Shown here in pieces: positions 16,755 through 42,564 of a DNA stretch of 64,000 nucleotides. Position numbers and translations under genes: made by a program. Origin of the DNA: a virus; the IMG/VR virus record IMGVR_UViG_3300027736_000020, positions 32,001 to 96,000 of that record. The stretch is one strand, 5' to 3'. Under the pieces are notes generated by a model. That model saw nothing but the letters and a program-made list of their open reading frames with translations. It was not told where the DNA came from and made no database searches. How positions within the stretch are numbered: the stretch's first letter is position 1; each line of letters opens with the position of its first letter.

Positions 16755-18629
16755 CTATAGTATGCGTGGTATGCGTAATTCCGTACCCCATTCTAGTTTT
16801 TTCGTGAAGCTTTCTGAAATATTGCTTTGCACAGCAATCCATGTTGCAATTTCATTGATTTTTGATTCAGTCATATTCTCTAGATTGGGATATTTATTTT
16901 TTATGATTTCAAGAATTGTTTCCTTTAGGGCTTCACAATAGCCTTTATATGTATATTGCTGCTGTAAAAATCCATTAATATAGACCGCAGGTGACAATTC
17001 ATCCTCATTAAAGGTTAATTGTTCGTCATAATTCCATAATTTATTAAAAATATTTATGGCAAAAAGCAAATCTGTTCCCGATCCGTTAGGCAAATCTGAC
17101 ATGTTAACACTGTTGATCAAATGAACAGCATTTGAAACCTCAAGCACAACTGGGCCATCTGGATCTAATATGGATCTTGATCCAAGGAATCTGGATCGAG
17201 TCATTGGTCCAACGATTGTCTTGTTATGCAAATAGTCTATTTTCCCCCTGATTTGACTGTTTTTATATGATACATCATCAAGAGTAGTAAAAGGAGCTGT
17301 TGAAGCATTGAAATATATCTCAGAGTTTATTGAAGGTGAATACGCATTACTAGTAGTGGCAACCATTTGATTGGTAAAAACAAATCCTGTTATATTAGTA
17401 TTGTCTTCCGTTGCCGTCGAATGATACGTGTCAATAATATATGTTCCCACTAATCCGCTTCCGCTATTGATTTTCAGTACTTTTGTTCCAACAATGATGC
17501 CTTTGCCAACAAGTGTCTGACCTACCGTCAAAGGACCTGAACCCGAATAAACAACGGATATTGTAGCAACATTGCCTTGAACCGATCCTTGGCCAGCAAA
17601 TGTGTCCGTATACGCATAATCAGCATTAGGTATATTTGATGCTACCGCAGCAGTACTGTTTCCCAAAGACAGTTTTTTGTATGAATTTGGATTTGTACTA
17701 ATGGGAAAACCTGATGATATTGAATCGTAATACCTGAATTCCGAAAATTTCTGTGTGCTGTCAGGAGGATACCCAAAACGTTCCTTATATTCACTTATCG
17801 TTGGTTTGCTCGGTGTTCTATACGTAATATATTTTTCCGGAGAATATAAATCTAATTGATCCCCTTTAAACGTCGGCGAAGAAAATCCACCAGATGCAGG
17901 ACGAGTTGCATATCTTCCTGTATTAAATCCAAGCTGTCTTCCGTTTCCATCATCCTTATTCCAGAGTTGTGTAATCAAGTTTCTTCTTTTTTCCCTGTAC
18001 ACATCAAACTTGTGAAGATTTGTGGGACTTTTTGAATCAAGCGCCGCAAAAGAAAGTGAATACGAATGCGTCAATGGGCCCTTTGCAGAACGCTCCATCT
18101 TGAAATTCACAATGGTGACATCCCATTGTCCAAAATGGGGGCTGTCATTGAAATCAATGGAAAGCACCAGTCTTGTGCCTTGCGCATTGCCCACTTTGCA
18201 ACGTTCATAATAGGTGTCAACAAACTCCCTGAGCATGCTGAATTGAACCCATCCTATCGGTCCCTGAAGAGGGCTTGGTCCAATGGTTCCCGACATGGTA
18301 ATGGTTGGAAGTCCCGCTCCCAGATGATCCACATAGGAATCGCCGGAAAGAGTTTGATACACGCCAACTCTTCCCGGAATCTCAATACTCAATTGCGAAG
18401 GAGTCACATAAAATTCATGAAGCATGATACGTTCATTTTTTGAATCAAACATCGTAAGTTCCATGATGTTTGAGGCTTCAACCTTGATCATGTGATACGG
18501 AGCAAGACTTGCGCTTGCACTTCTTACGGTGCTATTAGGACGCAATACTTCCTTGTTCAATTTTCGATTGCCGTTGGGATCATCTTGCCAATAACTTGGC
18601 AAGTTAAACGGATTTGTTTGTTCGACCAT
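16755..18629 (-). CDS. Tail tube initiator / baseplate hub-associated protein (P2 gpU / T4 gp48-gp54-like)
   Basis: FYVTPSQLSIE...VYQTLSG.SYVDHLGAGLPTITMSGTIG, then V.IVNFKMERS...HSYSLSF; ends with a LysM-like terminus (LEWGTELRIP). Confidence 0.7.
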   Translation of the reverse strand: MVEQTNPFNLPSYWQDDPNGNRKLNKEVLRPNSTVRSASASLAPYHMIKVEASNIMELTMFDSKNERIMLHEFYVTPSQLSIEIPGRVGVYQTLSGDSYVDHLGAGLPTITMSGTIGPSPLQGPIGWVQFSMLREFVDTYYERCKVGNAQGTRLVLSIDFNDSPHFGQWDVTIVNFKMERSAKGPLTHSYSLSFAALDSKSPTNLHKFDVYREKRRNLITQLWNKDDGNGRQLGFNTGRYATRPASGGFSSPTFKGDQLDLYSPEKYITYRTPSKPTISEYKERFGYPPDSTQKFSEFRYYDSISSGFPISTNPNSYKKLSLGNSTAAVASNIPNADYAYTDTFAGQGSVQGNVATISVVYSGSGPLTVGQTLVGKGIIVGTKVLKINSGSGLVGTYIIDTYHSTATEDNTNITGFVFTNQMVATTSNAYSPSINSEIYFNASTAPFTTLDDVSYKNSQIRGKIDYLHNKTIVGPMTRSRFLGSRSILDPDGPVVLEVSNAVHLINSVNMSDLPNGSGTDLLFAINIFNKLWNYDEQLTFNEDELSPAVYINGFLQQQYTYKGYCEALKETILEIIKNKYPNLENMTESKINEIATWIAVQSNISESFTKKLEWGTELRIPRIL

Positions 18630-18698
18630 GATTTACAAATTCCTTTTCAATAAGTATAACGAAAGATGAAAGAGTAAAAATGTCTTGATCAAAAATTT

Positions 18699-19685
18699 TT
18701 ACACTTTTGGAAATGCCAAAATCACAATTCCCGATCCTCCTGATCCAGAAGTGCCATAATGAACACCGCCACCGCCAGATCCCGTATTGTCTGTTGCGTT
18801 CGCTGCAGTGGCCTGACCAGATGCTCCGCCCCCACCCGCTCCACCCGCTACCGGATTATTGGGATTTGATGTTCCTCCGTATGCACCGTTACCGGCACAG
18901 GAACCTCCGCCGCCTGCTGCTCGCTGAATGGATGTTCCTGTAATGCTTGAAAATGCTCCAGCTCCACCAACACCCGTTCCTCCACCTCCACCAACATTGG
19001 TGTTCCCGCCACCGCCAGCTGTTCCAGCAGCGCCAGCGCCACCGCCACCGCCAGCAGCGCTATCAGTAGCTGATGAGGCCCCCCCATATCCTCCGTTATT
19101 TCCTTGACCAGCAGTTGCAGATCCGGGAACTCCTGATCCATTTCCGCCAGATCCTCCACCGCCAGATCCTCCCGTCTTTCCGTTGACTCCAGCATTGTTT
19201 CCGCCGCCGCCCCCTCCGCCTACAGAAGTAATTGTTGAAAAAGATGAATCATTTCCATTGGTGCCTCCTATAAAAGTGTTTACCACTTGCGCACCGCCTC
19301 CACCAACGACAACCGTGTAGGTTGTCCCCGATGTTATCCCTATAGTTCCCGTGCGATATCCGCCAGCTCCGCCTCCCCCTCCTCGCCAATTTCCGCCCGA
19401 GCCTCCTCCAGCTATAACAAGATACTCAACATTTAGATTTCTGTTTACGGAAATATTTGTCGTTGTCGAAACTGTTCCTGTGGCATTAAATGAATATGTA
19501 TCATAAAGTACTCCATTTCTAGATATTACACCAAGATATGTTCCCGTGGTTGTAAACACGTTTGGATTTGCATCGCTTAATTTTCTGAATTTTTTTACGC
19601 CTGTTCCTTTGTACAAATTAGAAATTGCGCGTTGAGAAATAGCAGATCGAGATATAGATGAGCGTGATGAAGAACTTATGCTCAT
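18699..19685 (-). CDS. Glycine-rich fibre-tip protein
   Basis: VEYLVIAGGGSGG...GGGGAGGY...GGSGIVIL. Start moved from 19844 to MSISSS (19685), just after the adaptor stop. Confidence 0.8.
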   Translation of the reverse strand: MSISSSSRSSISRSAISQRAISNLYKGTGVKKFRKLSDANPNVFTTTGTYLGVISRNGVLYDTYSFNATGTVSTTTNISVNRNLNVEYLVIAGGGSGGNWRGGGGGAGGYRTGTIGITSGTTYTVVVGGGGAQVVNTFIGGTNGNDSSFSTITSVGGGGGGGNNAGVNGKTGGSGGGGSGGNGSGVPGSATAGQGNNGGYGGASSATDSAAGGGGGAGAAGTAGGGGNTNVGGGGGTGVGGAGAFSSITGTSIQRAAGGGGSCAGNGAYGGTSNPNNPVAGGAGGGGASGQATAANATDNTGSGGGGVHYGTSGSGGSGIVILAFPKV

Positions 19686-19689
19686 AGTA

Positions 19690-20019
19690 TCACGGCCCCT
19701 GTAATCCATATGCGGTAATATGCACCGTTGCAGCGCTGGCACTTCCCACCAAATACCTATTGGTTGGATCAAGACAAATTCCCAATTGAAGTGCAACCGT
19801 ATCATTTGCTGCCACCGTTGCGGTGTATGCAATGTACGCTCCATGCGTAGCAGTTGAGTTTGTTCCTGTACTTAGTGTATATGTTGCAGATGTTGACGCA
19901 GTATTACATATTGTTATGCAATTTATTACCGTATAGGTACCGGCTGTAGAGCCATTATCTACAATGTTTGTTACTGCAGTGGCGGCCATGGTTCCTAATC
20001 TTTTAATTACTTCGGCCAT
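19690..20019 (-). CDS. Small fibre adaptor-like protein (family 1)
   Basis: 109 aa; clear paralog of 25633..25974 (KRLG...ICNT...ATY...YIAY..TV.ANDTV.L..G..LD.TN.YL..SASA.TV). Confidence 0.8.
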   Translation of the reverse strand: MAEVIKRLGTMAATAVTNIVDNGSTAGTYTVINCITICNTASTSATYTLSTGTNSTATHGAYIAYTATVAANDTVALQLGICLDPTNRYLVGSASAATVHITAYGLQGP

Positions 20020-20031
20020 TTTCTTTTTCCT

Positions 20032-22062
20032 TTACGATGTGAACATGAACTGACGGTAATAGGTTGTTCCAGAAGACCAGCCAAGAGTTCCTGAGGTGTC
20101 TGTAGCGGCGAGGACTTGCCCAACGGTTGGGGATGTGGGTAATGTCATCCTGACTCCAGCATTATTTATTCGCATACGTTCGTATCTTGCATTAAATGTT
20201 TGCATAGAAATTGCAGAGACTGCAGCAGATTGCGTGGAGCTAACAGTATATGTTCCCTTTCCTCCAAGCACAGTTGTTGGTGTTTCAGTGCTTGTTAATT
20301 GATCGAGAATAATAAGTCCGGAAGGAAGTCCAGCAGCATTTACAATTTCTTGAAAAGGTGCAATAGTTCCTGATGTTATTGCGGATACCGTGAGAATTGC
20401 GCTATTTGATGGAATGGATCCAGTAAAACTTGCTGCCGTACCAGCACCATTTATATAAAAAACATGATTTGCTGCTCCTCCTGCTATATAATCAAGTTGA
20501 CTGCCAGATATTCCAAAACCGAAGAAATTTGACGCGTATGTTGATCCTCCATCCCAAAGAATTATTTTGTTTGCAAATCCTGCATAAGGAGCATATGACC
20601 ATGCAGTAACGGAAAGTGGGGGGGTTACTAACGATAGAGACACGGTTCCTGTTTGCAAAGGCCCAATGGTTGTTTTCCCAGCAGCAGTGATGCGCATTCG
20701 CTCCAAACCTTGAGACATACTTCCCGGATTTGTGTAAAACGTAAGATCTGAAGGAACACTCCCCGTTGCCACTGTTCCGTTAGAAATTCCGTATATTCCG
20801 GCACCTTCTATAAAATTTGTTCCATCATATCCTTCCCATGTAATATGACCCAAATAATCCCCATTAACAACGGTTAACTTTGTTGCAACGGTTCCGCGAG
20901 ATTTTCTTATACGAAGATTGGGAGCATTTGAATTTGCCCCGTTGGCACGAAGCAAATACAAAGACTCTGTTGATCCCTGAATATCTAACAAAGCTCCCGG
21001 AGCAGTGGTCCCAATGCCGACGTTGCCGGATGGATTTAAAATAGTTATCCTTGCACTTAATGATGGCGATAATTTACATAGACCAGTGTTATTAGTAGTA
21101 GGATACACAGTTGTTCCGTTATATGTAAAAATATGTCCAACTGCATAGACCGATGCTCCTATATCAGACCACCAAGTATTTCCCACAACGGTAATAGTGT
21201 ATTTTGTTCCGCTCACTAGCCCTGTTGTTGGATTAAATGCAGTTGCGCTATTATCTCCTTTATCATTTCCGTATAGTGTAATGCTAGATGGCTGATATGC
21301 CATGCCACCAAGGTAACTGTCGGGAAGTGTGGTACCACGAGGTGTATAAGGAAAGATAAGCGGCGCCCAAGAAAAATCATCTGTAGATCGCCCAATTGCT
21401 CTATATGCTTGACCTCCCGTATCAGAATATGAACCAATTTCTGTAAAAGCAGCTTTCCCGCGAACGTCAAGTGCTGCATCAGGACCAGTGGTTCCAATAC
21501 CGACGTTGCCAGCAGAAGAAAAATAAACCCTTGAAGTTCCTACTGCGACATTAACTGCAGATCCACTGCGAAACTCCAATCCGCCATTAGCTCCTCGAAT
21601 AGTATAATTATTGCCGCTTGCAGTAATTCCTGTAAATTGGGTTGGGCTAGATACTGATAAACTGGAAGGATTAGTTACGGAATATGTTCCATTCCCACCT
21701 GCTGTACCAGTGAGTTGTCCTGTAATAACTACAGTTGAAGAAAAACCGCTCCAATTAATTGTTTGTCCAACAGCAAGTGTACCTCCTGCTGACACACCTC
21801 CAACTGATAGTGTTGTTCCAGATACTGTTCCTATTCCAAACGCTGCCACAGAATCAAAATACAGCGCTGTTGACAGTGTTGATAATTCAAAACTATCTGT
21901 TCGCCGCTTCATTTGCAATCCAGCAAAACCAGTTCCGGCTATTTCTAATGTAGTTGCCGGACTCGTGGTCCCAATGCCGACGTTTCCCAATGAAACAGTC
22001 AAGCCATTGGGAAAATCGGGCGTAGAATTTACTAAACTTCTTGTTGGTGCATATCTTGTCAT
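20032..22062 (-). CDS. Tail/head fibre protein with GNVGIGTT repeats
   Basis: Three GNVGIGTT junctions. Start moved to MTRYAP (22062), giving an ATGA overlap with the upstream stop. Confidence 0.82.
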   Translation of the reverse strand: MTRYAPTRSLVNSTPDFPNGLTVSLGNVGIGTTSPATTLEIAGTGFAGLQMKRRTDSFELSTLSTALYFDSVAAFGIGTVSGTTLSVGGVSAGGTLAVGQTINWSGFSSTVVITGQLTGTAGGNGTYSVTNPSSLSVSSPTQFTGITASGNNYTIRGANGGLEFRSGSAVNVAVGTSRVYFSSAGNVGIGTTGPDAALDVRGKAAFTEIGSYSDTGGQAYRAIGRSTDDFSWAPLIFPYTPRGTTLPDSYLGGMAYQPSSITLYGNDKGDNSATAFNPTTGLVSGTKYTITVVGNTWWSDIGASVYAVGHIFTYNGTTVYPTTNNTGLCKLSPSLSARITILNPSGNVGIGTTAPGALLDIQGSTESLYLLRANGANSNAPNLRIRKSRGTVATKLTVVNGDYLGHITWEGYDGTNFIEGAGIYGISNGTVATGSVPSDLTFYTNPGSMSQGLERMRITAAGKTTIGPLQTGTVSLSLVTPPLSVTAWSYAPYAGFANKIILWDGGSTYASNFFGFGISGSQLDYIAGGAANHVFYINGAGTAASFTGSIPSNSAILTVSAITSGTIAPFQEIVNAAGLPSGLIILDQLTSTETPTTVLGGKGTYTVSSTQSAAVSAISMQTFNARYERMRINNAGVRMTLPTSPTVGQVLAATDTSGTLGWSSGTTYYRQFMFTS

Positions 22063-22673
22063 CCGATCACCTCGAAGCCACAAATAGCATGAATGGCATT
22101 TGTTGTTCCGGCCGAAAGATATAAATAATCTGCTTCTTCCAGATAAATACTTGAATCCTTGGACAAAAGCACAAGGGAGGAATTTCCGGGAACAGTGACA
22201 TTCACAGCCAGTGCCCGTTCAACAGCGGGGTTTGTCCATGACAGTGTGGTCAGGGCACCTGCGCTCGCACTCGTTGTGCCCGTGACGGCAATACTGTAAT
22301 TTGTTCCGGAAATGGTAATCGCACCTACGGTAACGCCCGTTCCGGTGCTGATGGGGCTAATTCCTGACCCAGTGATGGTTATGGAGGCAGCAAGGAATGG
22401 TCCAGCAGACATGGGAACAGTCAACGTGTATGCTCCGCTCGTCACTGTTCCTACTGTTCCACTGGTAGCCGTATACGTTTCCGCAGCGCTATACATGTAG
22501 AGCGTGACGGTAGCCGCTGTTGCCGTGACATTCGAGGCGAGAATGGAATTGATCTTGTAGAGTTGGCCGCTCGAAGCAGGATTGGTCACAATCGTGCACG
22601 AGGTCGTAGGCACAAGAATGCTTGTCGTCTTTCCTCGTATTGCGCTTACTCCCATGATGTTTGGATTGGCCAT
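22059..22673 (-). CDS. Small fibre adaptor-like protein (family 2) with ~80-aa insertion
   Basis: MANPNI...I.GKT...KINSI..NV...VPGNSSLVLLSKDSSIYLEE; paralog of 28678..29043. Confidence 0.8.
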   Translation of the reverse strand: MANPNIMGVSAIRGKTTSILVPTTSCTIVTNPASSGQLYKINSILASNVTATAATVTLYMYSAAETYTATSGTVGTVTSGAYTLTVPMSAGPFLAASITITGSGISPISTGTGVTVGAITISGTNYSIAVTGTTSASAGALTTLSWTNPAVERALAVNVTVPGNSSLVLLSKDSSIYLEEADYLYLSAGTTNAIHAICGFEVIG

Positions 22674-22707
22674 TTTTTTTTATTTCCTTGCGTTTTTATT
22701 ATAAAAA

Positions 22708-23559
22708 CTATTTTGCCACGCGTATGATGATTATGCCTTTTCCGCCGCTACCACCAATCGCTCCTGAACTGCCATTATTGTCATTTCTTGTTCCGTATCC
22801 ACCATTTCCGGTATTTGCTGCTCCTGAAGTAGCAGTGGATGCGCCTGTATGCGCACCGCCATTTCCACCAGCACCGTAAACGACACTATTGATCGCCGAA
22901 GTTTTTCCTGTCCCTCCAGTACCAGCAACCTGATTGCCAGCCGCTCCTCCGGCAGCACCTGCGCCGCCGCCGCCGCCGCCAGCATAGGATGAGGCACTTG
23001 CCGTATATGCAGCGCCACCAGAATTACCCTGTCCTGTTGTGCCTACACCGGCAGCTAACCATGACGGAACACCTTCATTCCCCAAGCTTCCTCCTCCTCC
23101 GCTTCCCACTACTCCATTTCCAGTTCCTGCGTCGAAAACGCTACTGTATGTATAATCTCTCCAAAAACTTGCGCCTTTTCCCCCTCCGTACGCAGTGACT
23201 GAAGCGAATGATGACGCTGTTCCACTTGAGCCATTTGGGTATGCTCCAGCTCCTCCACCACCCACTACGACGTTATACACAGTATTTGCGGAACAAGATA
23301 TGACTTGTTCAAGTACACCACCGCCTCCGCCTCCGCCTCCCATTCTTCCTCCGCCAGCACCTCCCCCGCCAACAATCAGTGCCGTTACCGATGTTGTCTT
23401 TGGAAATTTTATTGTTCCAGTGTCAAGAAAAGTATAGTAATAATATGTTGCGTCGCTAGTCTTCGTTCCTATTGTAAATGATAGTGCTGGACCATATTCT
23501 GCAACATATGCGGCAATAGTGACATCTCTATCTGAGACCTGATTGTATAAATAACTCAT
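22708..23559 (-). CDS. Glycine-rich fibre-tip protein
   Basis: YYTFLDTGT...ALIVGGGGAGG...GGSGGKGIIIIR; paralog of 18699..19685. Start moved to MSYLYN (23559). Confidence 0.8.
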   Translation of the reverse strand: MSYLYNQVSDRDVTIAAYVAEYGPALSFTIGTKTSDATYYYYTFLDTGTIKFPKTTSVTALIVGGGGAGGGRMGGGGGGGGVLEQVISCSANTVYNVVVGGGGAGAYPNGSSGTASSFASVTAYGGGKGASFWRDYTYSSVFDAGTGNGVVGSGGGGSLGNEGVPSWLAAGVGTTGQGNSGGAAYTASASSYAGGGGGGAGAAGGAAGNQVAGTGGTGKTSAINSVVYGAGGNGGAHTGASTATSGAANTGNGGYGTRNDNNGSSGAIGGSGGKGIIIIRVAK

Positions 23560-23569
23560 GTCATTCTCC

Positions 23570-25633
23570 CTAAATAATGAACCATGTGTTTGTGCCATCG
23601 GAAACAAATGTATATGAATCATATTGCGCCGGAATTGAAAATGCTGCTCCTGCACTGCCTAATTCAATGAACTGTCCAGCTGCTGGAGTAATGTTTACAG
23701 TGCCGGGCGTCAGTCTTTTTATGATGTACACCCTGTTTGCCGCAGTGGCTGCATTAGGCAGTGTATAAACAACATTCCCTGTTGCCGCACTAGTAATAAT
23801 ATATTGCGTGGCATCAAGCGTTGTTCCACTAGCAAGCAAAGGAGAAACTTTTACTGATTGTGATCCTGATACATGAAATGTAGATTTTGGATCACTCGTC
23901 CCAATGCCGACGTTGCCAGCGGTAGTAATTCGCACTCGTTCCGCCCCGTTGGTGTATATTTCCACACCTCCAACGTTGTATGTTCCTCCTGAACCTCTTG
24001 CAACAAACATGCCTGAAGTGGCGGTTGTCGGACCACCTCGCAGAATAAGTGATCCATCGGCAGTATTTACTGGCCGGTCAATGTATACATCGGCTGTGGC
24101 ACCGTTAACGGAAAGAGATGCGGTAGGACTCGTGGTCCCAATGCCGACGTTGCCAGCATTGGTAATTGCCAAGCGGACTAAGCCATTTGGGCCTCCGCCA
24201 TACGTAGTGTCGGTTTTCCAATCTTCGCGGAAAATTCTGAACAAACCGGAGGCGTTATCTATATTCCATATGACTGGAGTACCAGTCATTGTTGCTGCAG
24301 TGGAAACGGTGGCGAGACTTGTGTCAAGATTGACCGTATATGGGCCAGATCCTGACACACTTGTCACAACGGCTCCCGTAGTAACTCCCGCGACAGACAG
24401 CACTTGTCCCGCAGCCCAAGCCCCGGTTACTGTTCCGGAAGTGGTCATGACTGTTCCAAGTATCGTACCTTGAGACGAAGCAGTGTTCGTAGTCTCGGAT
24501 TCAAGGGTCAGCCGTCCGTTTGTTGGTGCACCAGCGAATCCTTGAGGAGATGTGGCTTGCGGTGCGCGAAGGCGAAGATGCCCGTTGATGCTGACAGGAA
24601 CAGAAAATCGCGCAAGCATGGAATATGTTGAATACTGATAAGCTCCGGTAGTGTACACCTCATTGTATGTAGGAAAACTGAGATCAAAAAATCTTTCGGT
24701 AATATTTGTTCCGCCAGAAACTGTTGCATTTCCCCCGGTATCTGTTCGTTCAGGATATCCCCAAATGCTGTATTGTCTTGCACCCGTAATTTTTGTGTCG
24801 CTTAATGTGTCTACATACGTAGCCCAGTGTATGCCGCCCAAATCCGAAAAAGAATATGTGGAAGTTCCCGCCGTGCTTGTTGTAGTGGAAAAAATGACTA
24901 CATCCGTGGCGTTTGTTATTGATTGAATAATGCAAGAAGTGCCAACGGCTCCTGCAGTTGTCCCTGTGGCAACGCTTGTCACTTTCATTCCAATGTGTAG
25001 TGCGGAAGTTGATGCAACCGCCAGTGTTGCAGTCCTAGCCGAACCAGTGCCACCCACAGCAGAAATTGTTCCACCAATACTGGGCACATCGGTATTTTTT
25101 GCAAAAAGCTGAACTGCAACCCAAGGAGCTGTCGTTCTTGTGGCTTGAATATTTATTTGCGACGTATTCATGAAGGCATAAATTCGATTATTTACCAATA
25201 AGTATTCTTTTGATTGATCAATTGCTCCTGCTGCATTTCCATATCCAATAGTCAAATTTGGATTTGGCGTATTCGTATACGTAAATAATTGAAAATTGTC
25301 AGAAGCAGTTGATGTTAATTGCAGTCCATTAATTGTTCCGGTTCCATTAGAAAATGTACCCGTCACAGAAGTATTATTATTTAAAGTGATTCCACCGGGC
25401 GCACCAACCCACAAACTTTTTCCGGCAGTGCTTGTATAAAGTCGTATTTGATTATTCGTCGGATAGTCATCAATGGTGTATCCAATGGTGCCAATTGAAA
25501 GGGATGAAAGGGACTGCGTGGACGAAACACTCAACGTCGTGACGCCATTCGTTGTCGATGAGGTCAGCCCGGTTCCTCCCAGAACTTGGGCCGCAACATT
25601 CAATCCAGAAACCGTTAGCGTCTTGATAGTCAT
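23570..25633 (-). CDS. Fibre protein with GNVGIGT repeats
   Basis: 687 aa; two GNVGIGT junctions; C-terminal YTLPNAATAANRVYIIKR...YDSYTFVSDGTNTWFII fibre-tip motif. Confidence 0.8.
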   Translation of the reverse strand: MTIKTLTVSGLNVAAQVLGGTGLTSSTTNGVTTLSVSSTQSLSSLSIGTIGYTIDDYPTNNQIRLYTSTAGKSLWVGAPGGITLNNNTSVTGTFSNGTGTINGLQLTSTASDNFQLFTYTNTPNPNLTIGYGNAAGAIDQSKEYLLVNNRIYAFMNTSQINIQATRTTAPWVAVQLFAKNTDVPSIGGTISAVGGTGSARTATLAVASTSALHIGMKVTSVATGTTAGAVGTSCIIQSITNATDVVIFSTTTSTAGTSTYSFSDLGGIHWATYVDTLSDTKITGARQYSIWGYPERTDTGGNATVSGGTNITERFFDLSFPTYNEVYTTGAYQYSTYSMLARFSVPVSINGHLRLRAPQATSPQGFAGAPTNGRLTLESETTNTASSQGTILGTVMTTSGTVTGAWAAGQVLSVAGVTTGAVVTSVSGSGPYTVNLDTSLATVSTAATMTGTPVIWNIDNASGLFRIFREDWKTDTTYGGGPNGLVRLAITNAGNVGIGTTSPTASLSVNGATADVYIDRPVNTADGSLILRGGPTTATSGMFVARGSGGTYNVGGVEIYTNGAERVRITTAGNVGIGTSDPKSTFHVSGSQSVKVSPLLASGTTLDATQYIITSAATGNVVYTLPNAATAANRVYIIKRLTPGTVNITPAAGQFIELGSAGAAFSIPAQYDSYTFVSDGTNTWFII

Positions 25634-25974
25634 TAGCTTATTTCCACGCCAGAAACACTGAATGCCACCGTAACAGCACTCGCAGATACAAGCAAGTATT
25701 TATTGGTCAAATCAAGAGTGGTTCCGACAGTAAGAAAGACCGTGTCATTCGCATTGACGGTTCCTCCGTACGCAATGTATCCCGTATATCCCGAGGCTGG
25801 AAACGTATTTGCGGTAGAAATACACACCCTATACGTCGCACTGGCCCCGGCAGTATTGCAAATGACTATCGTGCTGGCAATGGCCGCAGTGACAGTGCAG
25901 GTATAGAGAACGTCTGCGGTTCCAATGGTTCCACTTGATGTTATTGCGCCCAATCTTTTATATGTTTGCGCCAT
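25633..25974 (-). CDS. Small fibre adaptor-like protein (family 1)
   Basis: 113 aa, MAQTYKRLG; paralog of 19690..20019; SD GGAG upstream. Confidence 0.8.
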   Translation of the reverse strand: MAQTYKRLGAITSSGTIGTADVLYTCTVTAAIASTIVICNTAGASATYRVCISTANTFPASGYTGYIAYGGTVNANDTVFLTVGTTLDLTNKYLLVSASAVTVAFSVSGVEIS

Positions 25975-26028
25975 TATGATGCTCCAATCAATTATACATT
26001 TTTATGAGCTTTTTAATTCGGCATTTTT

Positions 26029-27882
26029 TCATCGAACATATATTTCAAAACGGGCGGATCGGTTGATTCCGGTCGTGTCCTGACAGCAAGCGATGTAATC
26101 GCCTGCGCTTCGAGTACCGTTAGCCATCCCGATGCCTCCAAACACGTCATTCGTTCCGACGTAGATTTGATTAGTGCTTGGCCAAAGACCCTCGCCGTTT
26201 TCGTTCCATCCAAAGCCCCATCGAACAGATCCGGTAACCGAAGGATATAGCGTGTAATTGACTTGAGAATAATTAAATCCATAAAACCTGATATCCGTCT
26301 GACTGGAGAATGAACCATTCGACCACCCAGTAAAGGTCTTGGCGTCTCGCTTGAACAAGCCGCTGCCCCCGTACTGGACCGGATACGACAGGTTGAAGAA
26401 GTTGGTCAGCGATTGACGACTAGTGCCGTTAAAGTCGTTTTCCAACCATGTCCACTGAGTATTGTTGGAGATGCTGCCTCCTGTCCACGTGATCTGGCTG
26501 GTGGTGGTCTTGTAGCAGTAGAAGTCGGCAACGAAGTTGTAGTTCTGACCAGATGCGGCCCATCCGGCGTTGTCAATTCGAAACCTCCCGTGAGTCGTGC
26601 TGGCCGTCGTCGTGAGGGCAATCGTGTTGGCTACACCATCGACCAGAGTTGTCGTCGTCACGATGGTGCCGGACTGAAGTTGCTCGAAGTACATGGCGTG
26701 AGCACTGCCCTTGTTGGTTGTTCCCTTGTTGACGCCAACCGATATGGCCGTATTGGCGGGAACGGAAAATGTCGAGGAGTATGAGCGGTGCGTACTGTTG
26801 TTGGAGATCCACGGCTTGACACCGTTGTCCGTGTTGGCTGTCGGGGAACTGTTGATCGTATACTGGACATTGATGGTGACCGCAGGCGTGACCCGCGCCG
26901 AAATCTCCAAGGGAATCATGGTGACCTGCGTCCCATTGGTGAATGTCGCCGCGGTCGCGCCGCTGAGGTCATCAATGACCACTTCACGGATGTTGGTATC
27001 GGCCTTGACGATCCTGAACGCGTAGTACCGTTCGGCCATGACATTGGCGGGAGTCATGTCGGGCCACAATCCAAGGATATCTTTTGCACCGAAGTAGTTA
27101 AAAGTCTGGTATTTTGCATTTCCAGCATTTGTGGTGGTATCACTGGGATTAAGGGTATTGAAGGTGGTCCAATAGGAAGAAGAATAGGAAAAAGTGGTAT
27201 CACTCAAGGATTTCCCGCCCTTCATTGCTAGCATCCATCCGCCACCGTCGTACGCGGAGTCCATCAGGCAGTAAACCTGCGTTGGACCGACAGTCGGGAG
27301 ATTGATCCAATACACACCGTTAGTATTGGTTCCCGTTAACGTTTTGATGGACATTGCACTGTCTCCGGCAAGGGCAGACGTAGATCCATTACCTGAAGCA
27401 TTTACAGGAGTAATTGTCGATACATTTGCCAATAATATTCCGGAAGAATTTGCAAGTCGTATTTCAATATAAAATGAATCAGTTTCTATTCCATCAGAGC
27501 TTACCAACGTTTTTGTAAATTCTCCCGAAGATGTTGTTCCCCATTCAGAATATGTGGTAAATGTTCCAGTCATTAATCCATCAGTAAAATCTTCTGCTAA
27601 TACTGATCCTGTTAATGGAACAATTGTATAATGTAATGTTAATCCAGCCGTCGCTTTGGATAAATTGATCTTTACGGTAAAAGTCGTTCCTTCGGTGGGA
27701 GTAACTGACGGAGTGACAGATGTCCAATTCGTGCGAATTTGCTGAGGCCACGTCGCCTGCCTGACATGATTGTATGCCTGAAAAGAATCATATATTCCCG
27801 AGATTGACACAGGAGCAAACCCTGTCGCAGATGTTTGCGAGGGAAGATTCTGTGGTCCAATGATTCCGCCGTTTTTTATCAT
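26029..27882 (-). CDS. Fibrinogen-related (FReD / intelectin-like) lectin domain protein
   Basis: IKTLTGTNTNGVYWINLP...TQVYCLMDSAYDGGGWML is the fibrinogen C-terminal signature. C-terminal VRWGFGWNEN...GGIGM; N-terminal Ig/Calx-beta-like stretch. Confidence 0.85.
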   Translation of the reverse strand: MIKNGGIIGPQNLPSQTSATGFAPVSISGIYDSFQAYNHVRQATWPQQIRTNWTSVTPSVTPTEGTTFTVKINLSKATAGLTLHYTIVPLTGSVLAEDFTDGLMTGTFTTYSEWGTTSSGEFTKTLVSSDGIETDSFYIEIRLANSSGILLANVSTITPVNASGNGSTSALAGDSAMSIKTLTGTNTNGVYWINLPTVGPTQVYCLMDSAYDGGGWMLAMKGGKSLSDTTFSYSSSYWTTFNTLNPSDTTTNAGNAKYQTFNYFGAKDILGLWPDMTPANVMAERYYAFRIVKADTNIREVVIDDLSGATAATFTNGTQVTMIPLEISARVTPAVTINVQYTINSSPTANTDNGVKPWISNNSTHRSYSSTFSVPANTAISVGVNKGTTNKGSAHAMYFEQLQSGTIVTTTTLVDGVANTIALTTTASTTHGRFRIDNAGWAASGQNYNFVADFYCYKTTTSQITWTGGSISNNTQWTWLENDFNGTSRQSLTNFFNLSYPVQYGGSGLFKRDAKTFTGWSNGSFSSQTDIRFYGFNYSQVNYTLYPSVTGSVRWGFGWNENGEGLWPSTNQIYVGTNDVFGGIGMANGTRSAGDYIACCQDTTGINRSARFEIYVR

Positions 27883-27892
27883 TTATTTTCTC

Positions 27893-28675
27893 TTATACCG
27901 GGTAATCTGTTGTGTACAGCGACGGGTATCTATTTTTAAAAACATAATAATTCTGCATTATTTCGGCGTAAGACAACACTCTGTTATATGCTAATACAAA
28001 TGATATATAACAACTTGAGAATTCGGATGTAGCATTAAAAGTTCCAAGATAAAATGCATTTGGCCCTTGCGACCCGTAAGAGTTAGGGCCAAAACTCAAA
28101 GCAAGTCCATCGTATAAAGCCCAACTGTCAGAAGTATAATTTCCAGTGCAAGTAAATATTCTCCAGTTTGTATCGTTGTTTTGATAGGTAATATTTGTGC
28201 CTAATCCTGCACTTAGATCGTTAATCCATCCTTCAGAATAATACCTTTCATATCCTCCGCCATGATATCCCAATAAAAAATTATTATATCTTCCACTCAC
28301 CACGCGCCCCTGAATGGCCGTGTTAAAAATTTTTGTTCCTGCCATAATTGTATGATTTGTCGTGGAAAGATTTGGCCCCGCAGTTCGAATATATTGTCCA
28401 ACTGTACTTGATGTAGCAGTACATATCATTACCCCTCCATCTGTGGTTCCGCTCCAAGTAACCCCATTGACAAGAGTGCCATTATTTCCAGATCCGCTAA
28501 GATCAGTCCATGTTGTGCCAGTGCCTGAATAACTTGCAGTATTTCCCGCATCAAGATGCAACACAAGACCCGAAGAAACAACGCCGAAATTTGCTTTGCC
28601 GACAACGTCAATAGTGTTTGATCTTTTTTGCTGACTTGATCCTATGTATCCTGCGTTATTTGAAAAAAACGACAT
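27893..28675 (-). CDS. Concanavalin A / LamG-like lectin domain protein
   Basis: GLVLHLDAGNTASYSGTGTTWTDLSGSGNNGTLVNG ... AYNRVLSYAEIMQNY. Start moved to MSFFSN (28675). Confidence 0.85.
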   Translation of the reverse strand: MSFFSNNAGYIGSSQQKRSNTIDVVGKANFGVVSSGLVLHLDAGNTASYSGTGTTWTDLSGSGNNGTLVNGVTWSGTTDGGVMICTATSSTVGQYIRTAGPNLSTTNHTIMAGTKIFNTAIQGRVVSGRYNNFLLGYHGGGYERYYSEGWINDLSAGLGTNITYQNNDTNWRIFTCTGNYTSDSWALYDGLALSFGPNSYGSQGPNAFYLGTFNATSEFSSCYISFVLAYNRVLSYAEIMQNYYVFKNRYPSLYTTDYPV

Positions 28676-28677
28676 TT

Positions 28678-29043
28678 TTATACACCAATCTCTTCGTATG
28701 AGCAAATTGCTTCCAATTTGCTTACGGTGCTTGCGGTAAGTCTCAAGCTATCATTTTCTTCTAGATATATTGCGCTTTCTTTTGACAACAAAACTAGCGT
28801 TGCGTTGGCAGGAACAGAAATCAAATACGCAATACGATACGCCGTGGTTGCGGCTTTGTAAACATCAGCAGTAATATTATACGCTGTTGTACCGTCAACA
28901 TTTGCAATAATTAATGAATTTATTTTCAATACTTTTCCTGAAGATGACCCGTTGGCTACAATCGCGGTTGCAGTAACTGGAACAGCAAGTCCTGCGGTTT
29001 TTCCGTACATGGTTGCTATTGATACGATATTTGGTGCGGCCAT
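28678..29043 (-). CDS. Small fibre adaptor-like protein (family 2)
   Basis: 121 aa, MAAPNIV...GKT...KINSLIIANVDG...VPANATLVLLSK...IYLEE; follows a fibre ending in AIAFSILFR. Confidence 0.8.
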   Translation of the reverse strand: MAAPNIVSIATMYGKTAGLAVPVTATAIVANGSSSGKVLKINSLIIANVDGTTAYNITADVYKAATTAYRIAYLISVPANATLVLLSKESAIYLEENDSLRLTASTVSKLEAICSYEEIGV

Positions 29044-29054
29044 TTTTTAATCCT

Positions 29055-32000
29055 TTATCTGAATAATATTGAAAATGCAATTGCGCGATTAGCACCTGCC
29101 GCAGTCGTCCAAGCAACCGTCCCCGATGTGTCGGTAGCGGCGAGTACTTGTCCGACTACAGGGGCGGAAGGAAGATTGACCTGCAACGTTCCCGCAGTGC
29201 CAATACGCAAATTTCCATTATCTGTACGCAATGTTGTGGTTCCAATCCCACCATCTCCAGTTCTTGCTGAACTATTGGTAAAGATAACAAATTTTGTTTC
29301 AAGAACGTCATTTCCCATCCTGAATATTGTATAAGAAGTATTTTCTGCGCTTGTATTTCGCAAATAGAAAGCAGCTTCAGTCGTATTGGATTTAACGACA
29401 GAAAGATCACCGGAAGGACTGGTGGTTCCAATACCGACGTTTCCAGCAGAAGTAATTCGCATACGTTCGAGAAATGTGCTTCCGCTCCAAAGCGTATGCA
29501 CCAAATCCGCTGCCCCATTCGTGTTCGTCATTATTGCTTTGATTTGAGCGTTACCCAAATCGCCCGAATACGTAGAACTTTCTAAGGCAAAATTTAATGA
29601 CGCATCATTTCCAATTGTCGCCGTCGCGCCATTGACAATGCTTATTTCTCCGCCTCTTCCTCCCGCAGTATCTTTCCTTACTGAAAGCAAAGATTCTGGA
29701 CTAGTGGTCCCAAGACCCACAAAACCTTCGCGAGAAAAATATATTTTTGATGACCCTCCGCCTGCATTTACCGCAGAATTGTTAAGAAAATCCAAACCTC
29801 CATAAGATGCTCGAATGCTATAATTATTTACGTAGCTAATTGCGGTAGCATTAACTGCGGTGCTTATTGTTTGATTTGTGCTATTTGTTACGGTATATGT
29901 TCCAACACCGCCCGTTCCTCCCGTAGTTGGAATAAGTGCCGTGATAGTCACTACCGAGGTTATGTCGGGTCCGCTAACTACTTGGCCGACTGCCCATGTG
30001 CTGGCAGGCCCAGTTGTCGAAACAACAGTTAGTGTCGTTCCCGAAAGGGTGATTGTTCCATAAGCGGCTACCGAATCAAAATACAGCGCTGTTGACAATT
30101 GAGGATTGTCTGTTCTGCGCTTCATTTGCAATCCGGCGAAACCAGTTCCGGCTATTTCCAAAGTGGTTGCGGGAGTCGTGGTCCCAATGCCGACGTTGCC
30201 ACCAGATTTGAATGTCACCAAGTCGGCAGTGTTAATGCGTATTCGTATATCGTCGGTACTTGCCGTTTCAACACGCAGAACGTTATCTGTTCCTAATCCA
30301 ATGTATGCTTTTGCCACGTCCGCAGCCGAAAATTGCATTAATCGGTTTGTTCCGGCCGCTGCGTTTATTGTCAACAGTTGCCCCGGACTTGTGGTCCCAA
30401 TGCCGACGTTGCCTCCTGTAAAAAGCGCGGAATACGTGGAATTAGAAAACGTCTGTGTCGCTGTCCATGTATTTGCGGTGGAAAGCGAAGCCCCTCCTCC
30501 TCCGCCACTGCCTACTAAAGTCTCTGCTCCAGTCCCTGATTTGTAATACAAGGATCCAGACTTGCTATATAGCGTGAATTTTCCAGTTCCCGGAGCATTT
30601 GGCGCGACAGAAAGATCTGTCAATGTCAACTGGTTGATATTGGAAATCTGTCCGGTAGTACTATCCGGTGCAGGAACTCCAAGGCTAAGACCATCGCTGG
30701 TGATGGAAAAAGAACTTCCGGCCGCAGAAAGACTTCCTCCTGTGATGATCGGCAAATCCGTCCCAAAGATCGTGGCAAACGCCAATGAGGAAGAGCTTCC
30801 TCCCCCGCCTCCACTTCCGCTGCTGAATACCGACTCCGCCCCAGTATCCGTACGCTTGTAGAGGAATCCGTCGTCCTTGAAATACATCTTGATGTACCCA
30901 GTAGAAGGATTGGTAAGAGCCAGTGCTTCCGCTGTCGTATTCAGTTTGTAGGAAATGGACGTGAAAATCTGGTTTGCTGTCCATGTATTTTGTGTTGCCA
31001 ACATCAGGGTGCTTCCTGCACCCCAGCTCAAGTTTCCTGAACCATCAGTGGTTAAAGTCTGCCCATTGCTTCCCGCAGTAGGGGGAAATATATATGTCGT
31101 TGCAGAGGCAGTTGCAGAACCTTGGAAAATTGTGGCTACGGAGTTGCTCAGGAGACCAATGCTCGTCAATCCCGCTATGGTTGCGGAAGTGGCACCCAGA
31201 GCCACCGATGTCGATCCGTATTGCACTGTAGAGCTGACAAGCTTGGCATTCGCTATGGAACCAGCAAGCATGGTGTTTGTTACTGTTGCGCTATCGCCAG
31301 TTCCAATCAATGTTCCCGCAAGAAGAGGCAGTGAAAATGCTCGTGCTGCTGTTTGACTTGCATTTGCCACCAAGGTTGAGGTGTAGGCATTTCCGATCAA
31401 TGACAAAGTAGAACTGCTCAGAACATTTGCCGCGCCAATTTTATATGTTTTTCCGGCCGCAAGATCAAAATTCTCACTCGATGTCCACGAAGCACCTGTA
31501 CTAACCCAATTAAGTGTCTTGTCTGATGCTCCTTTTACGGTTATTCCTGCGCCATCAGCGGTGGTGTCAGTAGGAGACGCAATGCTTGCCAATTCAATAT
31601 TTTTGTCATCTACAGACAAGGTTGTGGAATTTATGGTTGTGGTTGTGCCATTTACCGTCAAGTCTCCGGTTACCGTAAGCGAACTGTTTACGGTAACTAA
31701 TCCACCAGCTGCACTTCCAATATTGACATTTGTCGTTGATGAGGCCGCTCCCCCAGTGCCAATGTTTACGGTCTTTATCGTTGAAGCAGCAACGGCTCCC
31801 GTTGATATGTTTGTCGTACTTGCGGCAGTTCCAGTGTATCCAACGGTCAATGTTGTTGCGCTTGCAAATGCGCCAAAGGTTGCGCCTGAATCCATCGTAG
31901 TCGCGAACGTCGGTGAGGTGGAAAACACCAACGTTCCGCTTCCCGTTTCGTCCGTGACAGCAGAAAGCAAATTTGCACTACTTGGTGTACCAAGGAATGT

Positions 32001-33269
32001 GGCAATTCCTGTTCCGAGGGAGGTGATGCCCGTTCCCCCGTTCGCCACAGGCAATGTGCCAGTAACTCCGGTTGACAGGGGCAACCCTGTTGCGTTCGTC
32101 AACAATCCGCTTGCGGGAGTACCAAGCGCGGGAGTGACGAGTGTCGGGCTTGTCGCAAACACCAATGCGCCGCTTCCCGTTTCGTCACTGATAACTCCAG
32201 CCAGTTCGGCAGACGTGGTTGCTGCAAAAGTACTCAACTTGTTTGCGACATAGGCAGCGGTTCCTCCCGTTCCAAAGGCCACGGAAGCAGCATTTGTGGC
32301 CGAGAAGGTGAGCGTCTCGCTTATCGTGAGGGTCTTGCCATCAGCAACGGTGAGTGTTGAGCCTGATGCCGGTGTAGTAATCGTTACTTTGTTGATGGTG
32401 GTGGCTGTGGCAACGCCGAGCGTTGGAGTCGTCAACGTGGGAGACGTGAGCGTCTTGTTCGTCAATGTTTGGGTAAATGTTCTTAGTACTATTTCATCAC
32501 TTGCCGCACCCGGTAATGTAAATGTCAATGCATCTGTCGTTGCAGAAAGCGTTATGGAGTTATTAACCGAGAGCGTTTTGGCATTGGTAATGGTTAACGT
32601 TCCGGTGGTGCTCGTAACTGTCAACCCGTTAACGGTCTTGCCCGTGAGGGATTCCGTACCAGCTAGCGTCGCAAGCGTCCCTGTTGTCGGAAGAGTGACC
32701 GTTGTGGCGGCTCCAAGCGTCAAGGTAAGTGCATACGCTCCACTCGTTGTAAGATTTCCGCCAAGGGTAATGGTTTTTCCTGTATTGGCAACTCCCGTGC
32801 CACCGTATGTCGGAGAAACGATAGTTCCCTGCCATTGTCCGGCGGAAATGATTCCCGTCGAGGCAAGGGAAAAATTTGGCGCAACACTACTATTGCCAAC
32901 TTTTATCGACCCGCCCGTATACCAATTGCCGCTTGTGCTATTTAGGTCAGATACTGTTTGCGCAGCGGTCCAGTTGTTGGATACTGTGAGAAGACCAACG
33001 GGATCGAGAGGATATTCAGATGTTGATGTTCCGACGCGGTAATAGAGAACGCCAGTCTTGTTATAGATGACAATCCTGTTTGCTCCGGGAGCGTAGGAGC
33101 CAGCAGGAGAGATGGTTGAAAAAAGCAATGACCCCGCATTGACAGCGAGGTCTCCGGAGTTTAATGTAACTCCTCCTTCTGCGGTTATTCCTCCGGATGC
33201 TACTGTCAGGCCTCCTGCAACCGTTGCCATGCCAGAGGATGCAATTCGTAACCTTGGAATGTTTGCCAT
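29055..33269 (-). CDS. Long mosaic fibre protein
   Basis: 1404 aa; [26 protein letters not shown] shaft motif, [18 protein letters not shown] repeats and GNVGIGTT junctions. Confidence 0.85.
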
Positions 33270-33336
33270 GAATTACAATCCTTTTGTGTTTAGAGTATAC
33301 AATATTGATGACAACGGGGCGAATAAAAAAAATATA

Positions 33337-33612
33337 TTAGCAATTCTTTGATTGAGAGAATGCAGAAAGCTCCTTGAGTTTTTCATACAGATGCGCAAAT
33401 AACATCGAATTCTCTATGTTCCCTATGGGGAACGTAAAATTACGTGTTTGCAAAGGTGAACACCCGTTGCGTCTCTGTTCTTCCGACGCATAGGTGTTCA
33501 CTTGCACTTCAATGGTTGTCCCCGGAGCCGCACACGATGCCCAAGAAATCTTGTGATATCCATTGACAAGGGTTATTCCATGAACGGTGAGAAATTTCTG
33601 CTCAAGAGCCAT
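33337..33612 (-). CDS. Hypothetical protein (possible fibre assembly helper)
   Basis: 91 aa; overlaps the upstream stop; lies among fibre genes. Confidence 0.65.
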   Translation of the reverse strand: MALEQKFLTVHGITLVNGYHKISWASCAAPGTTIEVQVNTYASEEQRRNGCSPLQTRNFTFPIGNIENSMLFAHLYEKLKELSAFSQSKNC

Positions 33613-33928
33613 TGGGCGTACCTGAAGGCAACACAGCCGGAATCTTGCTCATTTCCTCAATATATGCATCATACGCAGCGGTTGAAGCAAAATCGCCGGG
33701 AAGAAATACATCTTCATCCGGCACATACCTATATCCAATACCAGCATACATCTTTCTGAAGTTGTTGTTATAGCTGGTCTGTACCCAGTTGCCACCGAGA
33801 AGGCTTTCACAGAAAGCCTTCCCTAGTGCTTCATTTTCTTGTCCGGTCGCATCCTTGAGGACATCGTTTGCCACGACGATGACTCGCTGGACAATATTAT
33901 TGTTATCTAATTCTGCAAAATGTGCCAT
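33602..33928 (-). CDS. Small fibre-associated protein (MAHFAEL type)
   Basis: MAHFAELDNNNIVQRVIVV...NWVQTSYNNNFRKMYAGIGY; start moved to MAHF (33928). Confidence 0.75.
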   Translation of the reverse strand: MAHFAELDNNNIVQRVIVVANDVLKDATGQENEALGKAFCESLLGGNWVQTSYNNNFRKMYAGIGYRYVPDEDVFLPGDFASTAAYDAYIEEMSKIPAVLPSGTPNGS

Positions 33929-33932
33929 TGTA

Positions 33933-34169
33933 CTATTTCTTCTCCGCCGGAATTTCAACAATTTCTTCAACGACAGGTTCTGGCACCGGAGGAAGCGGAC
34001 GGATGATCTCTACGTGCTTCCATTTCTCGATTTGCACGGGAACACCGACATACCATCCGTCTCCAAGTTCGACCATGCGGTGGTTGACCATGATGTCTTG
34101 CACATCTGCACTGGACAATGGGCCATAGATGTACGGATCATCAAATCGTTCGAATAATGTTGGCATCAT
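33933..34169 (-). CDS. Hypothetical protein
   Basis: 78 aa; SD GGAG upstream; packed between neighbours. Confidence 0.65.
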   Translation of the reverse strand: MMPTLFERFDDPYIYGPLSSADVQDIMVNHRMVELGDGWYVGVPVQIEKWKHVEIIRPLPPVPEPVVEEIVEIPAEKK

Positions 34170-41592: not shown

Positions 41593-42564
41593 TTACGTCC
41601 TTGTATACAAAAGAATGACTGCAGCATCGGCTGCGCCATTTGAAGCAGTTACGTCTATTGTAACATAGTCACTTGAAGTAAAGGCAACGTTGACTGCGGT
41701 GACACTTGAGGTATAGGAGCCTGCGGAAAGACTTGCAGTTGCTATTGTCGCGCCATTTTTTTCTACCGCAATTGAAAACGGTCCCGAAGTTGGCGCAGTA
41801 GAAGCATTGATATAGACACTCGTCACCGTGATTGATTGATCGGGATACCAACGCAATGTTCCGTTCTGTACACTAATCGGGCCGACAAAGTTGCATGTCT
41901 TTGTATACGTGGAACTTCCACCTCCACCACCGCTTGATCCGTTTGCCGCTCCGGTGATTCTTCCCTGCGCATCAATCGTGATATTTGCGCTTGTGTAATA
42001 TCCGGCAGTGACGGCAGTGTTTGCCAAGGCGATGGTTACTGCTGAAGAGCCATTGAAGCTTGTTCCCGACAGTCCTGTACCTATGGTGAGCGCGTTGGTG
42101 GTGGTGCCTCCACCGCCACTGCCGCTTGAGGCTGCAGTAATCCTTCCTTGTTGGTCTACGGTAATGCTTGCATTGGTGTATGATGCAGGAGTAACCGCAG
42201 TATTCGCCAATGCAATCGTGACTGCTGAAGAGCCATTGAAACTGCTGCCCGAAAGACCTGTTCCTATTGTAAGCGAATTTGTTGTCGTCCCTCCACCACC
42301 ACCAAAGGCAGTTTCCGCTCCAGATGCTCCATTCCTGTAATAGAATGATCCTGCGCGAGAATAAAAAATGGAAAGACCAGCTCCCGGTGCAGAAGGAGTT
42401 GATCCAAGATCACTTAACTTGAGAGAACCACTGGAAACGGTAACGTCTCCAGTGGCAACCATCAGTCCGCTTGTTACTTCCGTGGTTTGACCAATGGCCA
42501 ACCCACCAGTAATGACTTGGCTTCCAACAACATCCATGCTGTTGGAAGCTGTGAAACTAGGCAT
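41593..42564 (-). CDS. Short fibre-like protein with duplicated ~60-aa repeat
   Basis: Two copies of TN.LTIGTGLSG.SFNGSSAVTIALANTAVT...Y..A.IT.D.QGRIT.A. Confidence 0.8.
   Translation of the reverse strand: MPSFTASNSMDVVGSQVITGGLAIGQTTEVTSGLMVATGDVTVSSGSLKLSDLGSTPSAPGAGLSIFYSRAGSFYYRNGASGAETAFGGGGGTTTNSLTIGTGLSGSSFNGSSAVTIALANTAVTPASYTNASITVDQQGRITAASSGSGGGGTTTNALTIGTGLSGTSFNGSSAVTIALANTAVTAGYYTSANITIDAQGRITGAANGSSGGGGGSSTYTKTCNFVGPISVQNGTLRWYPDQSITVTSVYINASTAPTSGPFSIAVEKNGATIATASLSAGSYTSSVTAVNVAFTSSDYVTIDVTASNGAADAAVILLYTRT

Follow-up and report, generated by a model that had tools for sequence, protein, structure and literature searches.

What is the role of a short GC-rich repeat that recurs at the module junctions of phage fibre genes? 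Tail fibres set the host range of phages. The question is raised by a stretch of 64,000 nucleotides (nt), bases 32001-96000 of the 184,088-bp, 97% complete IMG/VR record IMGVR_UViG_3300027736_000020, from an uncultured phage found in freshwater metagenomes. This stretch is called the window below, and coordinates refer to it unless marked otherwise. A preliminary description noted eight copies of a 23-nt repeat in three genes of the window, and suggested a direct-repeat analogue of a shufflon. We consider it probable that the repeat is an evolutionary crossover seam for fibre cassettes, used by general recombination and with no dedicated switch.

The repeat and the modules it opens

At no more than three mismatches, the 23-mer has eight matches in the window, all on the plus strand and in direct orientation, against zero expected by chance (100 shuffles). 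The exact copies are those at 21005, 24132, 30178 and 30391, while 21965 has one mismatch, 21488 and 23895 have two and 29422 has three. A scan of the whole 184,088-bp record yielded no copy beyond these eight. The number, orientation and mismatches are as first described, and a recount of the G+C content (15 of 23) also agrees. Each of the eight copies encodes GNVGIGT, antisense, within open reading frames (ORFs) of the minus strand. A ninth, decayed copy at 29706-29726 encodes GFVGLGT. The initial assignment of the three genes to fibres stands for genes 1 and 2, whose products P0001 and P0002 match the tail fiber family phrog_9942 of PHROG; the product of gene 3, P0003, matches a virion structural family. 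The features are listed with their coding strand; L140 is a distant relative of this phage, P0012 a protein relative of gene 2, and X4 a metagenome run.

20032..22083, minus strand: fibre gene 1 (P0001), phrog_9942 tail fiber; motif at residues 33, 192 and 353
23570..25633, minus strand: fibre gene 2 (P0002, 687 amino acids), PHROG tail-fibre match; motif at residues 494 and 573
29055..33269, minus strand: fibre-like gene 3 (P0003, 1404 amino acids); motif at residues 953, 1024 and 1276, decayed copy at residue 1182
21005..21027, minus strand: copy 1, exact; here the block in common with L140 has its right-hand (3') limit
21488..21510, minus strand: copy 2, two mismatches (GGT ATT GGA variant); inside the block shared with L140
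21965..21987, minus strand: copy 3, one mismatch; the L140 block and the cassette common to genes 1 and 3 both have their 5' limit here
23895..23917, minus strand: copy 4, two mismatches; opens the tip of gene 2
24132..24154, minus strand: copy 5, exact; fused to copy 6 in a relative's metagenome contig; starts the 80-residue cassette shared with P0012
29422..29444, minus strand: copy 6, three mismatches; joint partner of copy 5 in run X4
29706..29726, minus strand: decayed ninth copy, 14 of 21 nt; paralogue of copy 2
30178..30200, minus strand: copy 7, exact; starts the gene 3 cassette paralogous to the first cassette of gene 1
30391..30413, minus strand: copy 8, exact
29695..30200, minus strand: gene 3 cassette paralogous to 21479-21987 of gene 1
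20070..20124, minus strand: second conserved seam (13-residue block), common to 29102-29156; the X4 joint 29161/20128 lies at its edge

The copies open consecutive cassettes of 71-161 amino acids each. A cassette has the form GNVGIGT(T/S)xPxxxL...ERMRITxA and is followed by the next GNVGIGT. The last 210 residues of P0002 match the MAT fibre Bd2133 of Bdellovibrio (PDB 8OND, E=6.9e-10) through ERMRIDTSGNLGLGT, and the alignment passes through the motif region ERMRIDTSGNLGLGTAAPTSALHV. Its match to Bd3182 and Bd2439 is weaker (PDB entries matched besides 8OND: 8OJN and 8OL4). The first beta-helix domain of Bd2133 starts at G683, the first glycine of the motif (PMC10769870), and thus the repeat can be read as the start signal of a fibre module. 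By this homology, from which the beta-helix fold of the window proteins is also predicted, GNVGIGT(T/S)xP is the putative opening capping loop of each triple-beta-helix module. The C-terminal Peptidase_S74 chaperone has no Pfam match in the three window proteins, which thus resemble the non-S74 subgroup; L140, with the same cassettes, carries Peptidase_S74 (PF13884). No family was found in Pfam and NCBIfam for P0001, P0002 and P0003.

Codon choice within the motif

A/T-ending codons predominate in this genome, and the codons of the motif are minor: GGC 18%, AAC 32%, GTC 19%, GGG 10%, ACC 19%. The genome counts bear out the earlier remark that the motif uses G/C-ending codons amid A/T-ending usage. 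Over the seven codons, the eight copies have a mean pairwise codon identity of 0.78, where 0.37 is expected; in 200,000 simulations the highest value was 0.70. A synonymous excess beyond what the peptide needs, as had been proposed, is therefore observed directly. Just past the motif, Thr+8 is encoded by ACT, ACG, ACC and ACA (identity 0.19, expected 0.27), and the invariant Pro+10 uses all four codons (0.21, expected 0.27). The flanking Leu codons also differ between copies, and synonymous sites vary in the upstream ERMRI motif too. The choice of Gly codons depends on position, with GGC at 1 and 4 and GGG at 6, which points to sequence identity and not just to rarity of codons. The G+C content of third codon positions (GC3) in the motif is 0.75 against 0.30 expected, which is extreme within the family.

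The copies might be alike merely through recent duplication of genes or cassettes. One true paralogous pair exists, nt 97-605 of gene 1 (21479-21987) and nt 3070-3575 of gene 3 (29695-30200). Its similarity starts exactly at the motif, and its identity drops from 79% to 68% at the nucleotide level. However, DNA similarity between all other copies of the three genes is limited to 29-47 nt, flanking Thr and Pro codons are near the codon-usage level and Leu codons differ, and so recent duplication fails for these copies. The real duplicate argues in the same direction: its internal gene 3 motif copy is down to 14 of 21 nt, having decayed as fast as its flanks, and illustrates the drift of an unmaintained motif. 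Recent whole-gene duplication, named at the outset as a possible source of repeat identity, is contradicted by these data, and as a general explanation of the copies duplication is hardly credible.

The pattern extends beyond this phage. A degenerate GNVGIGTT pattern was found in at least 120 viral contigs, with up to 25 copies per locus. Family statistics cover 113 loci among the matches listed, 21 of them with at least four copies. In the latter, within-locus motif codon identity is 0.29-0.85, with 0.33-0.49 expected, and exceeds expectation in 20 of the 21 loci; Pro codon identity is near expectation. Over the 113 loci, codons are enriched by position: GGC at position 1 (0.42 against 0.20), AAC (0.51 against 0.37), GTC (0.25 against 0.13), GGG at positions 4 and 6 (about 0.20 against 0.10) and ACG (0.34 against 0.13). 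The consensus by position is GGC AAC GTC GGy ATy GGG ACG. GC3 of the motif reaches 0.40 where 0.28 is expected (Wilcoxon p=2e-6; 75 of the 113 loci), while flank GC3 in these loci does not differ significantly from expectation (0.25 against 0.24). The exact 23-mer occurs in 11 IMG/VR contigs, once in each, and thus the exact spelling is not universal, only its consensus. The synonymous excess and the rise of GC3 are direct observations on the whole GNVGIGT fibre family and not on this phage alone. No paper with 'NVGIGT' was found in the searchable literature, and as far as that literature goes, a synonymous-site and GC3 signal at one capping-loop motif is apparently undescribed.

Selection on mRNA or translation would be another way to set the spelling. 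The motif would then be only a structural capping loop, its codons kept, for instance, by a rare-codon pause at each domain start or by a nucleic-acid signal of unknown kind, and the block limits described below would reflect a filter for domain boundaries. Minor codons in the motif here, enrichment of rarer, G/C-ending codons in the whole family, and the coincidence of domain boundary and motif (PMC10769870) are all in line with this possibility. So are the phage tRNAs Gly-TCC, Thr-TGT and Asn-GTT, which do not serve GGC, GTC and ACC. On the other hand, the choice of Gly codon depends on position. AT-rich loci, whose motifs are written in common codons, are homogeneous all the same (0.80 against 0.42 in L094, 0.83 against 0.46 in L041), and the limits of shared DNA blocks are base-exact and without indels. 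We thus regard this explanation as unlikely. Translational optimisation by the phage's own tRNAs was rejected, as the eight tRNA genes at G000:C1:136834-141234, outside the window (Gly-TCC, Arg-TCT, Asn-GTT, Thr-TGT, Leu-TAA, Gln-TTG, Lys-TTT and Met), mostly serve A-ending codons.

Limits of shared blocks and the proposed seam

Block limits are seen in the relative L140 (IMGVR_UViG_3300027782_000079, 68.8 kb). It aligns with window positions 21987-21005, two cassettes, at 85.7% identity over 987 nt. The block ends at the first base of copy 3 and at the last base of copy 1, with no indels at the limits. In L140 it forms residues 352-678 of an 869-residue protein with an unrelated 350-residue N-terminus and a Peptidase_S74 tip. 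In P0001 it is preceded by approximately 25-32 residues and followed by a different C-terminus of 320 residues. The syntenic neighbour genes of the two phages have only 22-52% amino acid identity. Thus the block, at 85.7% and surrounded by different protein parts, has moved horizontally.

Joints in metagenomes were read from Logan contigs, which are assembled and in which, unlike raw reads, rare variants are invisible; window regions lacking cover in runs X4 and X7 were excluded from the evidence. Run X4, from a different study, contains a 653-nt contig tiled by segments of genes 2 (24432-24153), 3 (29442-29161) and 1 (20128-20038) at about 95-96% identity. The first joint, 24153/29442, lies inside the motif and connects copy 5 with copy 6. 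The second, 29161/20128, lies at the edge of the second seam block (20070-20124 / 29102-29156). Both joints keep the frame by coordinate arithmetic. The contig belongs to a relative diverged by about 5% and does not come from the population of this phage.

Protein relatives of gene 2 show similar limits. P0012, which has a C1q tip, shares with P0002 only residues 493-593 (82%), that is, the cassette between the two copies in gene 2. P0005 shares residues 339-594 (91%), P0006 residues 563-687 (93%), and P0008, P0009 and P0011 share residues 1-43 and 565-687. The C-terminal sharing of P0006, P0008, P0009 and P0011 begins 8-10 residues upstream of copy 4 (residues 563-565). The breakpoints of P0006 (contig of 182.6 kb), P0009 and P0012 are known at the protein level only. 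Judging by these alignments, five protein relatives of gene 2 appear to switch partners at the motif. At the DNA level, limits of blocks at the motif are observed directly in L140 and in the X4 contig. The L140 block, the X4 joint and the relatives of gene 2 all agree with the original placement of the copies at module junctions where cassettes move, and a comparison of cassette order in relatives, which had been recommended, reveals differing contexts around shared blocks that end at the motif. Some searches added no relatives: GenBank phages gave no megablast match to 20000-34000, viral contigs searched with P0002 contained no related loci, and a metagenome scan with P0001 found no relative beyond one already known.

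A seam of this kind would operate as follows. The invariant protein motif would leave some 21-23 coding bases as the longest identity between otherwise unrelated modules. Crossovers guided by homology or microhomology, both between fibre genes and between co-infecting phages, would resolve at the motif because the longest shared identity lies there. Each crossover would be in frame and on a domain boundary, and would produce a working chimera. In this way cassettes could be swapped, gained or lost through host RecA or unrecognised phage functions. Repeated exchange would homogenise the spelling of the motif, a form of concerted evolution that may be GC-biased. The tail-fibre family whose modules open with GNVGIGT(T/S)xP is widespread, Bdellovibrio MAT fibres included. 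Two points are our inference: crossovers take place within the motif, and the uniform spelling is their result.

A broader proposal is more tentative, and we consider it possible rather than probable. The 21-23-nt spelling may be a family-wide 'universal seam' in DNA, maintained either because exchangeability is selected for or through GC-biased gene conversion, that lets very distant phages and bacteria with MAT-like fibres trade modules in frame. On this view, the codon consensus and the GC3 excess would reflect a shared recombination signal and not protein constraint.

Several points weigh against a crossover seam. A crossover was never directly seen, and the evidence is comparative. Limits at domain boundaries could also be left by illegitimate recombination if selection keeps only those chimeras that fold. 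The 97% complete genome yielded no phage recombinase. The X4 contig could in principle be chimeric, and the Logan contigs behind its joint cannot reveal rare variants. In the orthologous blocks that this phage has in common with L140, motif codons are not significantly better conserved than other synonymous codons (3 of 21 differ, against 47 of 240 elsewhere; p=0.77), in a test with little or no power. Finally, one result in favour of the seam has a rough null: across the loci compared, 11 of 180 internal alignment ends lie no more than 6 nt from a motif, where 1.6 are expected, but this test takes whole loci as its null and includes some related contigs.

Other observations concern the ends of the fibre genes and the surrounding locus. 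The first 41-43 residues of gene 2 (25505-25633) are 91-93% identical in P0007-P0011, and the middle parts differ; this N-terminus looks like a second seam, an anchor domain. Some X4 contigs join approximately 25523 directly to sites beside motif copies, with short sides of 26-31 letters. The protein collection contains a 472-residue version of gene 2, P0004, which begins at residue 216 of the 687-residue ORF (window 23570-24988), and therefore the true start of gene 2 is uncertain. For gene 1, ATG at 22062 is the likely start, favoured over TTG at 22083. This ATG overlaps the stop codon of the preceding ORF (22059-22673) as ATGA, and the two may be translationally coupled.

Between its homologues of 46859-47494 and 18039-18419, L140 carries just one fibre gene, of 2.6 kb, where this phage has about 28 kb of fibre-like genes (18600-46900). 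The N-terminal anchor of the L140 fibre (residues 20-109) matches another gene here, 41593-42564 (53% amino acid identity). A second distant relative, L013 (IMGVR_UViG_3300027736_000041), is similar in scattered patches of 60-430 nt at 67-93% identity, including 433-861, 17581-17640, 18535-18681, 32392-32609 and 33669-33929. As these patches are scattered across the window, mosaicism reaches past the motif-bearing genes.

The proposed rearrangement within the population, and known systems

The shufflon of R64 (Rci/sfx) and the Gin, Cin and Hin inversion systems cannot do without inverted repeats and a dedicated tyrosine or serine recombinase, and are reversible within a clone. What they have in common with the present case is the use of short repeats to vary the C-terminal region of an adhesin or tail fibre. 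However, a site-specific recombinase was not found in the 97% complete genome: Resolvase, Phage_integrase, RecA, Rad51, AAA_24, RecT, ERF, Rad52 and YqaJ gave no match, while controls gave hits. This extends to the genome the initial statement that no recombinase gene is in the window. The only recombination-related domain found is DprA (DNA_processg_A, E=7.5e-22) at G000:C1:111041-111571 (L142), within a 2228-residue ORF outside the window; it is a possible RecA mediator, and a lead only. All eight copies are direct, with no inverted repeats among them. Exchange between copies in one genome would delete 0.2-9 kb, and it is irreversible because all repeats are direct. The shufflon analogy finds no support, given the lack of matches to recombinases and annealing proteins, the direct repeats, and the location of the copies in three complete genes.

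Programmed, high-frequency rearrangement within the population could still be imagined, with cassettes deleted, duplicated or swapped to diversify host range. Eight co-oriented in-frame repeats would suit it, as any pairwise exchange keeps the frame, and in the source run several copies coincide with contig breaks (21026/20998, 24153), a possible sign of branching between variants. However, the genome has no match to a recombinase or annealing family, direct repeats allow no return from an exchange, and one between genes would remove 2-9 kb of structural genes. Source-run contigs, which cannot show rare variants, contain no in-register joint, and the clean joint comes only from a relative diverged by about 5%, in another study. 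Such a programme is therefore very unlikely.

Among the source-run data, one contig joint in run X1, 23919/24126, skips 206 nt where the copies are spaced by 237 nt, with 30 letters on its short side. It was left uncounted, being out of register and resting on 30 letters, and is unexplained. Several loose contig ends near copies, such as 30440, were also not counted, as they represent diverged homologous sequence and not new junctions. Most metagenome joints and loose ends cluster elsewhere, in the Gly-codon repeats (19025-19250, 23316-23371) of two glycine-rich proteins with long GGGGxG runs, 18699-19844 and 22708-23655, both phrog_2295. These joints are probably due to repeat-driven ambiguity of alignment or assembly.

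The closest precedents for a crossover seam are known in other fibres. In T-even phages, recombination at conserved motifs is reported for the 'His boxes' of gp37 and the glycine-rich motifs (GRMs) of gp38 (Tetart et al. 1996, 1998, cited in Trojet et al. 2011, PMC3157838). In this account, as here, short conserved motifs lie between variable segments of host-recognition proteins, the distal fibres and adhesins. In the phage considered here the motif is likewise conserved in both protein and DNA between variable segments, and natural chimeras have breakpoints in or beside it. However, this is another protein family with another fold, its motif is a beta-helix capping loop instead of a His box or GRM core, and the motif joins whole modules of 70-160 amino acids in several paralogous genes of one phage. 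The evidence here is comparative, with the synonymous and GC3 excess quantified across many phages.

The MAT fibres of Bdellovibrio bacteriovorus and S74-type phage fibres (Caulton et al. 2024, PMC10769870; PDB 8OND, 8OJN, 8OL4) are similar in structure. MAT fibres have the motif ERMRIxxxGN[VL]G[IL]GTxxPxxxLHV, module-opening capping loops and similar stalks; the capping-loop motif at the beta-helix module start is recognised here by sequence match (8OND, E=6.9e-10). In these fibres too, tips have been exchanged in evolution, and S74 and non-S74 endings both occur. MAT fibres differ in being bacterial surface proteins with a signal peptide. Their motif was treated as a structural feature, and its DNA spelling and recombination were not addressed (PMC10769870). 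In tailspikes of Escherichia coli phages, conserved DNA motifs flank receptor-binding domains and were proposed to be recombination hotspots (Pas et al. 2023, PMC10408124). They are 20-95 bp long, are conserved across phage genera and, as in this phage, lie on either side of an exchangeable receptor-binding part (PMC10408124). However, tailspikes are other proteins, and their motifs surround a single exchangeable domain, whereas here up to 8-25 repeats occur within fibre genes.

The principle, phages rebuilding host-recognition fibres at conserved motifs, is thus a known one, found here in the MAT-like beta-helix fibre family. Taken alone the case is of moderate interest; it gains from belonging to a pattern seen across the family. 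In-frame seams would explain how a locus of about 28 kb of fibre genes arose here where a relative has a single fibre gene. Seam positions would also provide a rule for reading mosaic fibre genes, which are common in metagenomes, and a signal across more than 100 unrelated viral contigs makes the idea of conserved-motif linkers testable by numbers.

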